Origin: a virus
Taxonomy: Duplodnaviria > Heunggongvirae > Uroviricota > Caudoviricetes
IMG/VR virus record: IMGVR_UViG_2675903650_000020
Coordinates: 1 to 4,469 of that record
Length of the DNA: 4,469 nt
Strand: one strand, 5' to 3'
The first letter of the stretch is position 1. Each line of letters opens with the position of its first letter. This document shows positions 161 through 3,821 of the stretch, one piece after another. Under the pieces are notes generated by a model, which was not told the origin of the DNA, searched no databases, and saw nothing but the letters and a program-made list of their open reading frames with translations. The translations under genes were made by a program, and so were the position numbers.

Positions 161-2122
161 TCATGCCGCGGCATCCGCGTTGTTCACTTCCACCTTCACA
201 CTGTCAATCAGCAGCGTATATGTCGCCGCCTTTAATATGCCTGTCAGTTGCAGTTTGTCCGCCGCCCCTGATGCCGGAGATTTCACCAGTGTGAACGGCG
301 TCCCCCGTTTCTCATCCAGTACCGGCGTCACCTGAATGCTGTTGTTTCCGGCAAACTCAAAAGCCAGTGTGTGCCATCCGTTATCAAAGACCCCGAACGT
401 ATCCAGCTTCGCATTCGGCTTCTTGTGGTACATCGCGTTCAGGTTCGTCGCATCCGTCTGCAGGAAGAAGGACATCAGCATGTCGTTGCCTTCCTCTGCC
501 AGCGTCACTCCCTCCGGCAGGGACGACAACTGCCAGTAAATGCCCATGGCAAACCGATTCGGCACCAGTGAACCCGGCAACTTAAACCGTACGCTCACAC
601 GTCCCCCCTTCTTCAGTAACTCCACTCCCTGTCCGGCTGCATCATGCTCCAGAAACCAGATGTGGTTTTCCGGTTTATTCAGTTGCAGGGCCTTACCTCC
701 CGTAGCCCCCGCATCACTGACCACCGCTTCAGCAATGTTTTTGTTAACATTGTCTCCGCTCGCCGGTTTGTGATAATAGCGCCAGCCCTGTGATGCCAGG
801 TCTTCGCCGGACGCCAGCAGACTCATCAGGGTTCGGTTACTGACCGGGGCTTCCGGCTCTCTCTCCGTACCTTCACCGGAAGGTCCGGTGGGCTTCACCG
901 TATCAGGCTGTTTTCCGGTAATGAATTCAGCGGTTCTCCCGGCATGCACAAGAATCGCCGTTGCCAGACGGTCGGAAATAATCCCACGACGTGCCCATGA
1001 TCCAAAATGCGTTTTACGGTCGGCCGTCGTCCAGGTTTTGGCGTCCGTTCGACCACCGGCTCCGTAATACCCAATATCCGCAACATCCGGATCTTCTGAC
1101 GGCTCGTTGGTACCCACATTTCGCCCGTTTTCATCCGTCATAAACGGCACAAAGAAGATTTTTTTTGCGGATTTCGTCTTGTATGCACCATACACCGCAT
1201 CGTATTGCGAAGAATAAGTCTGCTTCCAGTAGTAGGTCGTGTCGCCACAAATCCAGGGAACCGATGACGGAGAGCCCCCGAGACACTGACCTCCGAATTC
1301 CGACAGGTCAGAACGATATTTTTCCACCATGGAATCAAACAGCCCCGGCTGAGTGGCGTATGCACCCTGTTTCAAATCAAACTCGCCCTGCATCCAGACC
1401 ACTGCAAGCAGAATATTTTTAGGGTTGGCCTTCAGTGCGGCCTGAGTACGGGTAAGCAGGTCCTTGTACAGTGGCTTATCTACACCCCAACGTGCCGAGG
1501 TCTCGCTTGCGCCGGTGGATTCGCTGAAGGTACCTTCATCGCCCGCCAAAAATGCAGAACCACCACGGCAGCACGGAACCAGAAGAATACCGGCATTCGC
1601 CGGAATAAACGGCAACAATTTCTTCGCGATATGTAATCCCTGCCCCACGCATCCATACTGAGCTGCGCTGGCTTTCGGGTGTGAAAACTTACTCAAATCC
1701 TGAACATCATGCAGGCAGTGGTCCGCAGGAATAATGTCATTGTAGTTACAGGACGCACCACCCGGCGTGACAGTGCTGCGACGCGCCAGCTGTTTAATAC
1801 GCGGGTCCGGACGGTCATATGTCTCCGGCAGCGGAAGCCCTTCACCATACGCCATACCGTTTGACTGCCCGGCCAGGGCAACAACAAAGTAATACTCCGG
1901 TTCGCTGGTGGTGCTGATAACTGTGCCTTCTCCATCCGACGGCTTCACCACCACAGGTGTGGTGACATCACCTTCCGCCGCAATGGCCTGCATCAGGGTA
2001 TAGGGCGTGATGGCCACCGGACTGCCAAATGGCTGCCACCCCTCCTTCAGTTTTTGTGTCAGTCGTTTCGCAAGGTCTGACGGCGATGCCGCCCTGACAA
2101 CATCATAGTGTTTAAATGCCAT
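161..2122 (-). CDS. nanS: Prophage NanS-p-type sialate (9-O-acetyl-neuraminate) O-acetylesterase: DUF1737-like N-terminus, SGNH/SASA esterase core, C-terminal putative carbohydrate-binding domain
   Basis: Long ORF with TGA stop at 161-163. N-terminal segment KHYDVVRAASPSDLAKRLTQKLKEGWQPFGSPVAITPY matches what I recall of DUF1737. Catalytic-serine block FVVALAGQSNGMAYGEG (GQSN) is typical of SGNH/SASA sialate O-acetylesterases. A Pro/Glu-rich linker (PTGPSGEGTEREPEAP) is followed by a ~230-residue C-terminal domain. The track ORF starts at ATG 2137 (MVERTMAFK...); I prefer ATG 2122 (MAFKHYD...) because GGTGGAAAG lies 4-9 nt upstream, whereas 2137 has no SD. Confidence 0.85.
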   Translation of the reverse strand: MAFKHYDVVRAASPSDLAKRLTQKLKEGWQPFGSPVAITPYTLMQAIAAEGDVTTPVVVKPSDGEGTVISTTSEPEYYFVVALAGQSNGMAYGEGLPLPETYDRPDPRIKQLARRSTVTPGGASCNYNDIIPADHCLHDVQDLSKFSHPKASAAQYGCVGQGLHIAKKLLPFIPANAGILLVPCCRGGSAFLAGDEGTFSESTGASETSARWGVDKPLYKDLLTRTQAALKANPKNILLAVVWMQGEFDLKQGAYATQPGLFDSMVEKYRSDLSEFGGQCLGGSPSSVPWICGDTTYYWKQTYSSQYDAVYGAYKTKSAKKIFFVPFMTDENGRNVGTNEPSEDPDVADIGYYGAGGRTDAKTWTTADRKTHFGSWARRGIISDRLATAILVHAGRTAEFITGKQPDTVKPTGPSGEGTEREPEAPVSNRTLMSLLASGEDLASQGWRYYHKPASGDNVNKNIAEAVVSDAGATGGKALQLNKPENHIWFLEHDAAGQGVELLKKGGRVSVRFKLPGSLVPNRFAMGIYWQLSSLPEGVTLAEEGNDMLMSFFLQTDATNLNAMYHKKPNAKLDTFGVFDNGWHTLAFEFAGNNSIQVTPVLDEKRGTPFTLVKSPASGAADKLQLTGILKAATYTLLIDSVKVEVNNADAAA

Positions 2123-2315
2123 GGTTCTTTCCACCATCTGAAAAATAATTCTTTAAAATACCTGACATGTAATACAGAAAAAACACAAAACCATACCTTA
2201 AATAAAAACCTCATCATCAAGCAGATATGCATGGGTAAACTACAAGACGAGATATAAACCACCCTGCATTTAAATAAACAATAAACAACATCAGAAAAAT
2301 AATTCTGCTCTATGG

Positions 2316-2382: not shown

Positions 2383-2718
2383 ATGAAGTGGATTGTGATT
2401 GATACAGTTATCCAGCCATCATGCGGAATATCTTTTTCAGTCATATGGAGTAAAATAAAATTAATAATCTGGTATCAATCGGATGCTTTCTTACCTCCTG
2501 AAAGTATATTTACACTGACTCACACAGGTATCATGCTCAATAACAAAGTGCTACCTGTAACCATTTACAACGTAGTACCATTCAATAAAACATTCTGGAA
2601 TTTAATCAAAAACAGCCAGGAATGCCCTACAAATACAGATAACGTATTGAATGAATGCTTTAATAACCGTTGCACTCTGCAAATATGTCCTTATGGACTA
2701 AAACAACAAAGTCCATAA
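2383..2718 (+). CDS. Hypothetical small protein (111 aa), opposite strand to the phage late genes, inside the AT-rich insert; function unknown
   Basis: ATG 2383 is preceded by AAGGAA (2372-2377) with 5-nt spacing. 111 open codons in strongly AT-rich DNA, where stop codons should be frequent. The ORF ends inside a perfect 12-bp hairpin (2688-2721). I recognise no homolog. The protein is Ile/Asn-rich with 6 Cys. Confidence 0.45.
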
Positions 2719-2721
2719 GGA
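2688..2721 (+). other. Perfect 12-bp inverted repeat (TCCTTATGGACT / AGTCCATAAGGA) with 10-nt loop, spanning the stop codon of the 111-codon ORF
   Basis: Arms at 2688-2699 and 2710-2721 are exact reverse complements. The following + strand sequence GTTTACTCA is only weakly U-rich, so this is either a weak terminator or an RNA-stability or regulatory hairpin. Confidence 0.3.
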
Positions 2722-2734
2722 GTTTACTCACATC

Positions 2735-2773
2735 TGACAAAATCAATATAAACAGCCCCTCCGGAGAGGGGCT
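2735..2773 (-). terminator. Second minus-strand hairpin (8-bp stem AGCCCCTC/GAGGGGCT, 4-nt loop) followed by a moderately U-rich tract
   Basis: Perfect GC-rich stem 2754-2761 / 2766-2773. On the minus strand it is followed by GUUUAUAUUGAUUUUG (2753-2738). The U tract is interrupted, so it is weaker than the terminator at 2970-2995. Confidence 0.35.
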
Positions 2774-2969
2774 GGAGAGTGGCGCTATGTGCCATTGCAT
2801 GGTGCCGGGTGCCTCCCGGTGAATTCAGTACCAGCACCTGAATCCGCGATTATCCCATATACCTACTCGCTGATTGCCCCTCCGCACAGGGGGATTCACC
2901 ATGCCAGTTTCTTTTAACAAATTCCCCGCAAAACAGACAACTGTCAACCGTCTGAATTGTGAGACATTT

Positions 2970-2995
2970 AAAAAAAAGGCCCGCCGAAGCGAGCC
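2970..2995 (-). terminator. Rho-independent terminator downstream of the tRNA array (minus-strand RNA: GGCUCGC-UUCG-GCGGGCC + U8)
   Basis: Stem 2978-2984 / 2989-2995 has 6 pairs and one internal mismatch, with a UUCG tetraloop. It is followed on the minus strand by eight U (+ strand A-run 2970-2977). It lies 12 nt past the 3' end of the last tRNA. Confidence 0.7.
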
Positions 2996-3007
2996 TGATA
3001 ATAAATC

Positions 3008-3082
3008 TGGAGCGGGTAGCAGGAATCGAACCCGCATCATCAGACTGGAAGGCTGAGGTAATAGCCATTATACGGTACCCGC
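3008..3082 (-). tRNA. tRNA-Gly (anticodon UCC)-like, 75 nt, encoded CCA
   Basis: Manual fold of the reverse complement gives a 7-bp acceptor stem GCGGGTA/TACCCGC, T-arm GCGGG-TTCGATT-CCTGC, anticodon loop CTTCCAG (UCC), discriminator U and CCA. It closely resembles host glyT as I recall it, with a compensatory acceptor change and a C:U mismatch at the 31:39 closing pair. Confidence 0.8.
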
Positions 3083-3085
3083 ATA

Positions 3086-3161
3086 TGGTGCCGGCTACCG
3101 GAATCGAACTGGCGACCTGATGATTACAAGTCAGTTGCTCTACCATTGGAGCTAAACCAGC
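3086..3161 (-). tRNA. tRNA-Thr (anticodon UGU)-like, 76 nt, structurally degenerate (possible pseudo-tRNA)
   Basis: Acceptor stem GCTGGTT/AGCCGGC (two G.U pairs), D-arm GCTC-CAATGGTA-GAGC, anticodon loop CTTGTAA (UGU), variable loop AGGTC, T-loop TTCGATT, discriminator A and CCA. The overall layout aligns with E. coli tRNA-Thr, but the anticodon stem (ACTGA/TCATC) pairs at only 3 of 5 positions and the T-stem has one A:C mismatch. Confidence 0.6.
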
Positions 3162-3166
3162 ATGTT

Positions 3167-3241
3167 TGGCGGGACAGCGTGGACTCGAACCACGATAAGA
3201 AGGTTAACAGCCTTCCGTAATGACCTTTATACGACTGACCC
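3167..3241 (-). tRNA. tRNA-Asn (anticodon GUU)-like, 75 nt, encoded CCA
   Basis: Perfect anticodon stem GAAGG/CCTTC with loop CTGTTAA (GUU), T-arm CGTGG-TTCGAGT-CCACG, discriminator G and CCA, U8 present. The T-loop, anticodon loop and discriminator all match host tRNA-Asn as I recall it. The acceptor stem GGGTCAG/CTGTCCC has one U:U mismatch at 4:68. Confidence 0.8.
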
Positions 3242-3289
3242 AAATAAAAAAAGCCACCGTTGCAACTTAAGAGTCACTAACGGCAGCTT

Positions 3290-3326
3290 ATGCCAATAGT
3301 GTTGCTCATTTGCTCAATGATGTCAA
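3290..3326 (-). promoter_or_regulatory. Candidate late promoter (pR'-equivalent) between Q and the tRNA array; perfect -35 TTGACA at 3326..3321 (minus strand), -10 element unclear
   Basis: The Q stop codon to first tRNA gap is only about 90 nt and contains a consensus TTGACA. The best -10 candidates 17-20 nt downstream (AACACT / ACTATT) are weak. The position matches where lambdoid phages place pR' and the Q-utilisation site, which is established knowledge rather than something read from this sequence. Confidence 0.3.
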
Positions 3327-3332
3327 CACGTT

Positions 3333-3821
3333 CTATGCTACATGTTTAATTTTCTCTACACGTTTCCGGTTTTTAAACGCACTATCCAGAACCGGGTAAA
3401 TCATAAACAACGAGGCATTAAGGATTTCGTCAACTTCCCGTCGACAGGTTGCGAGCGATGGTTTTTGAATGCGCCCGCCGCCCCGGCATAACATCTTGCG
3501 AGGTCTTGCGACGCGATGATAGTAAGATGCAATAGCGTGCCTGGAAGAACCATGAGCGTAGTAGCTGAGGAGGATGCCGAAGGCTTTCTTGTCAATGTAC
3601 ATGACGGAATCGACGACCTGAGAAATCAACATTCCATCATCATCATTGCACATTGGTCTTGTCATAACTCTTCCCGGCTCTACGCTCTCCATGAACTTCG
3701 CTATTACGCTGCTCATGCGCTTTTCCAGACGACCTGAATAAACCCATGCGCCCCACAGTTCAAGCCAGCCATTCAGCCAATCGTGCTGTTCTTTGGTGAG
3801 GTTTAGTTCTCTTATGCCCAT
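3333..3821 (-). CDS. Q: Phage late-gene antitermination protein Q (Q21/QuuD-like family)
   Basis: 162-aa ORF with SD AGGGAG 7 nt upstream of ATG 3821. Motifs LELWGAW, SSVIAKF, TRPMCNDDDGMLI and LLSYYAHG parallel those I recall in DLP12 QuuD (LERWGAW, SSIAAGF, SRPQCCDDDAMII, LLVDYYVVG). Its position immediately downstream of ninG and upstream of the tRNAs and late genes fits the lambdoid layout. Confidence 0.85.
   Translation of the reverse strand: MGIRELNLTKEQHDWLNGWLELWGAWVYSGRLEKRMSSVIAKFMESVEPGRVMTRPMCNDDDGMLISQVVDSVMYIDKKAFGILLSYYAHGSSRHAIASYYHRVARPRKMLCRGGGRIQKPSLATCRREVDEILNASLFMIYPVLDSAFKNRKRVEKIKHVA

Follow-up and report, generated by a model that had tools for sequence, protein, structure and literature searches.

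What are three tandem tRNA genes doing at the head of a lambdoid phage late operon, where were they acquired, and do they form a set of their own? The stretch of viral DNA in which we studied this question (4,469 nucleotides in total, hereafter called the window) had been described in an earlier note made from the sequence without database searches. This note read the trio as Asn(GUU)-Thr(UGU)-Gly(UCC), placed it exactly where the Stx phage 933W carries ileZ-argN-argO, and took it to point to a different, possibly host-derived tRNA set.

Positions 3008-3241 of the window hold three head-to-tail tRNA genes on the minus strand, each of them with an encoded CCA end, that are separated by spacers of 5 nt (AACAT, between Asn and Thr) and 3 nt (TAT, between Thr and Gly):

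3167-3241, minus strand: tRNA-Asn(GUU) of the phage 21 type (ARAGORN and Rfam; anticodon loop CTGTTAA)
3086-3161, minus strand: chimeric tRNA-Thr(UGU) (Rfam; anticodon loop CTTGTAA)
3008-3082, minus strand: tRNA-Gly(UCC), from host glyT (ARAGORN and Rfam; anticodon loop CTTCCAG)

Run on the window, ARAGORN called the Asn(gtt) and Gly(tcc) genes and missed the Thr gene in the middle. All three genes score above the curated threshold of 29 bits of the Rfam tRNA covariance model (RF00005), with 55.3 bits for Asn, 49.0 bits for Thr, and 45.9 bits for Gly. The anticodon loops of all three carry U33 and A37 and their T-arms carry the G53-C61 pair. Departures are found in Gly (C8 for U8, G38 opposite C32, and a C31.U39 mismatch) and in Thr (A27.C43 and C28.U42 mismatches), while the A52.C62 mismatch in the T-stem of Thr is already present in K-12 thrU and is thus inherited, not a defect. 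The cognate synthetases identify tRNA-Asn by G34, U35, U36, and G73, tRNA-Thr by G1-C72, C2-G71, G35, and U36, and tRNA-Gly by C2-G71, G3-C70, C35, C36, and U73; read from the sequence, these identity elements are complete in the respective genes of the window. In RefSeq and GenBank, loci with a Thr gene identical to that of the window carry tRNA-Asn, tRNA-Thr, and tRNA-Gly annotation, and this Thr gene is annotated as tRNA-Thr in CP027325 and JQ347801. The trio is therefore confirmed as three real tRNA genes reading Asn-Thr-Gly, and the anticodons, isotypes, and coordinates given in the earlier note were correct by Rfam, by ARAGORN for Asn and Gly, and by these annotations. Single-sequence folding was dropped as a test of function since not even host thrU takes a cloverleaf shape in its minimum-energy fold. 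An origin of the trio as the remnant of an integration site is ruled out, because all three are complete genes within the late operon, away from the prophage ends.

Upstream of the trio, the window carries a late regulatory region of the phage 21 type, for which the coordinates of the regulatory features were carried over from the annotated phage 21 record OL657228 (window position = L003 position + 583):

3333-3821, minus strand: Q21-type late antiterminator gene, 162 aa (identity to phage 21 Q, Pfam, and PDB match)
3242-3332, minus strand: late promoter pR' region (transferred from the phage 21 record)
3321-3326, minus strand: -35 element of pR' (phage 21 transfer)
3303-3318, minus strand: Q-binding element (phage 21 transfer)
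3298-3303, minus strand: -10 element of pR' (phage 21 transfer)
about 3291, minus strand: transcription start site (phage 21 transfer)
3284-3290, minus strand: sigma-dependent pause element (phage 21 transfer)
3242-3289, minus strand: tR' terminator (phage 21 transfer)

The Q protein of the window is identical to phage 21 Q at 160 of 162 amino acids (99%), belongs to the Pfam family Phage_antitermQ (E 3.6e-24), and matches the solved Q21 structures 6P18 and 6JNX over its full length (E about 1e-108). The 91 nt from Q to tRNA-Asn align to phage 21 with a single differing base and no gaps, and it is this near-identity that allowed us to transfer the curated features. A simple sigma-70 promoter scan of positions 2700-3400 picked up nothing, the known pR' included. 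The end of tR' is 3 nt away from tRNA-Asn. From the phage 21 module, we infer that expression of the trio depends on Q: Transcripts from pR' would halt at tR' unless RNA polymerase is modified by Q21, so that the trio would be the first product of the late transcript in lytic growth, and host tRNA-processing enzymes would then excise the three tRNAs. In a trio-bearing prophage of E. coli UTME-3, an HNH endonuclease gene (L013, positions 2824-3336) sits between Q and tRNA-Asn and puts the late promoter region apart from the tRNAs. A prophage of E. coli EC100 (L005) has a Q21-type Q and no tRNA genes between Q and its TerB and esterase genes, which indicates that the cassette is dispensable for this type of module.

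Downstream of the trio, the tRNA-Gly gene is followed by a terminator, a small RNA gene, an ORF on the opposite strand, and the esterase gene:

2969-2996, minus strand: hairpin resembling an intrinsic terminator, with a T8 run, directly behind Gly (terminator scan; stem 2996-2977, 8 pairs)
2744-2933, minus strand: STnc100-family prophage sRNA, outside the tRNA cassette (Rfam RF02076, 136.2 bits, E 5e-31)
2383-2718, plus strand, antisense to the late operon: iraM-like ORF, 111 aa (RefSeq annotation of relatives)
161-2137, minus strand: NanS-p-like SASA carbohydrate esterase, with which the long downstream genes of the late operon begin (Pfam DUF1737, SASA, and DUF6645)

The STnc100 sRNA has its own terminator at 2753-2774 according to the terminator scan, and STnc100 has been related to the PasD prophage sRNAs (2026 preprint). 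The 111-aa ORF has no Pfam hits and is named anti-adapter protein IraM by RefSeq in near-identical prophages. For comparison, the annotated order in 933W is Q, pR', terminators, ileZ-argN-argO, a terminator, stx2AB, a SASA esterase gene, and then S and R. The 933W gene order thus bears out the position assigned to the trio by the earlier note, and the same holds for the prophage of strain AF14. Both clusters consist of three tandem tRNA genes that follow the Q-dependent terminator and precede the stx or esterase genes, and the trailer and terminator behind the Gly gene of the window are homologous to those behind argO, the last tRNA gene, in 933W and AF14. The AF14 prophage, with a cluster of the ileZ-argN-argO type (cat, tcg, and tct by ARAGORN), further shares the downstream module of the window with its STnc100, iraM, and esterase genes at 98.5% identity. 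Unlike this similar framework, the tRNAs themselves are different, as the note had said: Their anticodons are GUU, UGU, and UCC rather than CAU, UCG, and UCU, their bodies are unrelated, and the types of Q and promoter differ. The window therefore lacks the anticodons that define the 933W type (CAU of Ile2, a UCG/CCG-reading Arg, and UCU of Arg). Among the papers that could be searched, none turned up on ileZ/argN/argO.

The terminator behind Gly marks the mosaic junction with the downstream module. Beyond it, the window tracks AF14-type prophages, while phage JLK-2012, which has the same trio, tracks 933W-like sequence. From Q to the tRNAs, the window resembles strain 2013C-4830 most (99.5%), and in its downstream part AF14-type prophages (98.5-99%); the window itself is a further mosaic. 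Near the nin region of JLK-2012 (L001, positions 11005-11203), Rfam also recognizes isrK as well as a C4 antisense RNA together with its a1/b1 target.

Neither the trio nor its first two members are new. Annotated records of phage 21, Sf6, SfI, BTP1, and many P22-like phages show an Asn+Thr pair behind Q, and this pair has been described in print for SfI, Sf6, ST64T, PS3, and phage 21 (PMC3636060). Among 5,426 complete E. coli genomes, the phage 21-type stretch from pR' through Asn and Thr is present at 80% coverage or more in 265 and the full trio, otherwise found in phage JLK-2012, in 13 (mostly O55:H7 and a few STEC), while the whole window reaches 80% coverage in none of these 5,426 genomes. 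Among the papers that could be searched, none describes the trio or the capture of thrU-glyT. The trio is a rare recombinant of two known sets that had already been annotated. The proposal of a different tRNA set is thus right in relation to ileZ-argN-argO, but the set is not new, given that Asn+Thr is standard in phage 21, Sf6, SfI, ST64T, and PS3 and that the trio is annotated in JLK-2012 and RefSeq. The refuting condition named in the note, that the trio be the standard set of well-characterised lambdoid phages, therefore applies in part.

How these two sets were joined can be read from the Thr gene. When aligned to phage 21, the late promoter/tR' region is one base off and Asn as well as Thr nt 1-26 are identical, after which the sequences diverge. 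The Asn gene matches phage 21 at 75/75 positions, and the Asn gene of JLK-2012 is 100% identical to it as well. Over its first 26 nt, Thr agrees with phage 21 at 26/26 positions and with thrU at 19/26, whereas nt 27-76 match thrU at 46/50 (92%) and phage 21 at 31/50, with G42U, U43C, A49G, and U68C as the differences from thrU. Both parents have GGTAGAGCA at Thr nt 18-26, and the crossover therefore lies inside this 9-nt stretch. In comparison with phage 21, the window thus has a late region with 99% identical Q, only one differing base in the promoter, Q-binding element, and terminator, and identical Asn, AACAT spacer, and Thr nt 1-26. It differs from phage 21, where a holin gene comes next after the Thr gene, by the thrU-type nt 27-76 of Thr and by the added Gly gene and argO-type terminator.

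The second parent can be recognized in other lambdoid phages in which a fused Thr-TAT-Gly pair sits behind Q or stx genes. This pair is identical to K-12 thrU (76/76) and glyT (75/75) in phi467 and slightly diverged in vB_EcoS-683R6 and SerU-LTIIb. It shares with the window the TAT spacer and near-identical host-type sequences of Thr nt 27-76 and Gly; the pairs of these three phages differ by a retained thrU 5' part, a usually wild-type anticodon arm, the absence of Asn upstream, and other trailers. The order of the host operon is thrU-tyrU-glyT-thrT, and its capture must therefore have entailed the loss of tyrU and the spacers. This fused host thrU-glyT pair circulating in lambdoid phages is the source of Gly, of Thr nt 27-76, and of the TAT spacer between them. 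A count of fused Thr-Gly pairs across E. coli genomes turned out to be unusable because pieces of the host operon were merged to one place per genome, and the about 1,100 extra places found in this search are only a hint of prophage copies. In SerU-LTIIb, the gene annotated as tRNA-Arg(TCT) beside the glyT copy (L010, positions 2588-2660) is a thrU derivative with its anticodon changed from TGT to TCT and thus appears to be a captured host tRNA with switched anticodon.

Sequence comparison thereby shows the cassette to be a three-part mosaic composed of a phage 21 part, a thrU-glyT part, and an argO-type trailer and terminator. This also settles to which genes the suggested host origin applies. 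The Gly gene is indeed close to K-12 glyT (69/75, 92%) with a compensatory acceptor-stem change (C6U+G67A) besides U8C, A38G, G39U, and C63U, and Thr nt 27-76 are host-derived too. The Asn gene does share its GGTTCGAGTCC T-arm and G73 with host asnT, but the two agree at only 48/76 positions overall, and neither Asn nor the phage 21-derived Thr nt 1-26 fit a host origin.

In the anticodon arm of the chimeric Thr gene, ACUGA/UCAGU of thrU has become ACUGA/UCAUC through G42U and U43C. These two changes unpair 27-43 and 28-42 and leave the anticodon stem with 3 of its 5 pairs, for which reason ARAGORN missed the gene. They also remove the CNG motif at 40-42 (CAG to CAU), while C28-U29-G30 is kept. 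A complete scan of IMG/VR found the TCATC arm in 28 contigs, with 16 chimeric copies and 12 non-chimeric copies of the thrU type. At least 8 sequence backgrounds carry it, and two copies differ from thrU by nothing but G42U/U43C; this change predates the chimera. Among the thrU-like viral-contig matches listed, TCATC is the sole recurrent variant of the anticodon arm, at roughly 5% and next to at least 111 wild-type copies, and frequencies drawn from these listed matches are rough. A broader search pattern for viral contigs was useless because it matched unrelated phages. In bacteria, the TCATC arm is found in 25 of the 5,426 complete E. coli genomes and, among species representatives, in E. 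albertii only, besides hits in metagenome-assembled genomes of Victivallaceae/Verrucomicrobia that we take to be unrelated. The Thr gene of the O55:H7 CB9615 type has U68 (G5.U68) and is left unannotated by RefSeq. In the window type, C68 (G5-C68) improves this pair and was acquired after the chimera had formed.

A stem of three pairs may just cripple tRNA-Thr, given that ARAGORN rejects the gene and that its Rfam score is the lowest of all Thr variants, and this raises the wider question of whether most or all of the trio are non-functional relics that are decaying and only kept because they are flanked by essential modules for regulation and lysis in a prophage that may be defective. The three genes give different answers. 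The Asn gene is nearly invariant, with 72 of 84 related viral-contig copies being identical, and in two relatives at 84% identity both sides have changed at pairs 5-68, 6-67, 29-41, 30-40, and 49-65. Such covariation argues that phage tRNA-Asn is under structural constraint. An acceptor-stem mismatch of Asn, U4.U69, is kept in most variants including the covarying diverged relatives (three have U69C and one has U69G).

The Gly gene of the trio shows the opposite pattern. Phage copies of glyT outside the trio have structure-preserving changes only, with 0 of 7 stem changes breaking a pair and with three independent compensatory doubles (C6U+G67A, G5U+C68A, and G49A+C65U), whereas 4 of 5 stem changes break pairs in the trio lineage (Fisher p = 0.01). 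All Gly copies linked to the chimeric Thr have A38G, which is able to pair with C32, and they vary further by U8C, G10A, G39U, G53C, or U66C. The Rfam score falls from 64.9 bits for host glyT to 55.4 bits for JLK-2012 and 45.9 bits for the window, which adds G39U and C63U, is the most derived copy, and has the lowest score of all Gly variants. Gly therefore looks like a decaying passenger in this lineage. Another glyT-derived copy on a viral contig reads TAC in place of the TCC anticodon, carries A38G, and has lost part of its 3' acceptor strand by deletion; it is either decayed or anticodon-changed.

For Gly alone, decay is the preferred reading. Extended to the whole trio, it could also call on the U68 variant of Thr being skipped by RefSeq annotation and on Q21-type prophages that do without any tRNAs, but it conflicts with the invariance and covariation of Asn, with the pair-improving U68C that the Thr acceptor stem gained after the chimera had formed, and with the low number of other damaging changes in the TCATC class across its various backgrounds. 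In addition, the Thr of phage 21 is active in experiments (PMC12445682). We thus consider it improbable that the trio as a whole is a relic, though the prophage behind the window may be defective, with drift in all three genes.

What the altered arm of Thr could be good for is suggested by recent work on Old, a nuclease of prophage P2 that cleaves host tRNA-ThrU(UGU) and thereby blocks lambda (Govande et al. 2025, PMC12445682). Old cuts after C28 and C40 at CNG motifs of the paired anticodon stem, with tRNA-ThrU as its main target and host tRNA-Asn(GUU) as a slower substrate (PMC12445682). Phage-encoded tRNA-Thr(UGU), including that of phage 21, rescue cells because they resist cleavage, and this resistance requires that the CNG motif is altered and that the stem is shortened as well, since neither change is sufficient alone (PMC12445682). 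Host tRNA-Thr species including tRNA-ThrU, by contrast, gave little or no protection (PMC12445682).

The Thr of the window fits the sequence criteria for Old resistance from that study (PMC12445682), with the UGU anticodon, an altered CNG motif, and 3 of 5 stem positions paired. Similar to the resistant tRNA-Thr6 and tRNA-Thr21 (PMC12445682), it combines UGU and a thrU-like body with a changed motif and a shorter stem. The changes behind it are different, namely G42U+U43C here and G30C/C40G+U43A in Thr6, and unlike the resistant phage tRNAs it keeps the 5'-strand motif and loses two pairs instead of one. The combination G42U/U43C is absent from the mutant set of PMC12445682, and the resistance of the arm is putative. 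P2 Old is triggered by Gam, which JLK-2012 encodes in addition to the same trio. The phage Asn has no CNG motif on either strand, and together with the slow cleavage of host tRNA-Asn this is no more than a hint that Asn may have a replacement role as well. A shared Old motif of the three host counterparts was rejected as evidence, because 12 of the 27 K-12 anticodon arms sampled have a paired CNG, so that its presence is uninformative and its lack in Asn counts for little. Four random substitutions in 50 nt would hit both the stem end and a motif position with a chance of about 3.6%, a figure calculated post hoc. The rarity of TCATC and the Old-sensitive wild-type arm of most phage copies speak against a general benefit, so any advantage of the variant is not general. 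Overall, we see an anti-Old role of the window's tRNA-Thr as possible at somewhat below even chances. Similarly, we only tentatively propose that the chimeric Thr is a natural replacement tRNA protected from P2 Old or from a related Toprim nuclease, that it arose from captured thrU by the two adjacent substitutions G42U and U43C, and that the Q21 cassette would serve mainly in anti-defence.

A more classical view of phage tRNAs is codon supplementation, by which the cassette would supply tRNAs for codons that are rare in the host and frequent in late genes (ACA, GGA/GGG, and AAU/AAC). The codon-usage check suggested by the earlier note has a mixed outcome in this regard. In the late genes of JLK-2012, ACA (10.6 versus 5.4 per thousand) and GGA (11.2 versus 6.0 per thousand) are about twice as frequent as in a sample of 42 K-12 genes, GGA reaches 24.3 per thousand in the esterase gene of the window, and an ACA bias of 17.3% versus 7.1% has been described for SfI (PMC3636060). 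Asn codons, however, are not enriched in the late genes of JLK-2012 (odds ratio 0.97), and the authors of the SfI study likewise saw no Asn bias (PMC3636060). Moreover, AGA/AGG (4.6-fold) and ATA (2.8-fold) are enriched more strongly, yet JLK-2012 has no tRNAs for them, which makes the bias look like the general codon usage of AT-rich foreign DNA. Also against codon supplementation, host tRNA-Thr is hardly protective against Old (PMC12445682), so that an extra dose of tRNA was not the cause of rescue in that assay. Codon supplementation thus remains weakly supported and, as an explanation of the set, unlikely; it is possible for Thr, where it would be compatible with the explanation that we favor below, but it is not specific to this set.

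Taken together, we consider it reasonably probable that the trio is a tRNA cassette in the late-operon leader of a phage 21-type lambdoid prophage, with a mosaic structure and with Thr as an Old-resistant stand-in. As the sequences show, phage 21 supplied pR', tR', Asn, and Thr nt 1-26, the crossover occurred in GGTAGAGCA, and the thrU-glyT pair supplied the rest of Thr, the TAT spacer, and Gly, followed by the argO-type trailer and terminator. The chimeric Thr(UGU) would provide decoding of ACA late in infection, most likely as a nuclease-resistant stand-in for tRNA-ThrU in which G42U/U43C removed the CNG motif of the 3' strand and shortened the stem. Asn is a conserved and constrained phage tRNA that may also act as a replacement tRNA, and Gly would be a passenger that is decaying in this lineage.

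For the biology of lambdoid phages, these results correct the impression of a new tRNA set, since Asn-Thr is the classical set of phage 21 and the trio has been annotated since JLK-2012. They show how such cassettes are built, by capture of host tRNA genes (thrU and glyT, fused with loss of tyrU) and by recombination inside a tRNA gene over a stretch of 9 nt, with terminators reused as module borders. The two-base variant of thrU that recurs on several phage backgrounds is a possible minimal escape allele in natural prophage populations, and gene finders such as ARAGORN and, for one variant, the RefSeq pipeline miss tRNAs of this kind through features that may be adaptive. If the anti-defence reading is true, the late-leader cassette of Q21-type phages would not be a codon-usage aid but mainly an anti-defence function, made available as late transcription begins.
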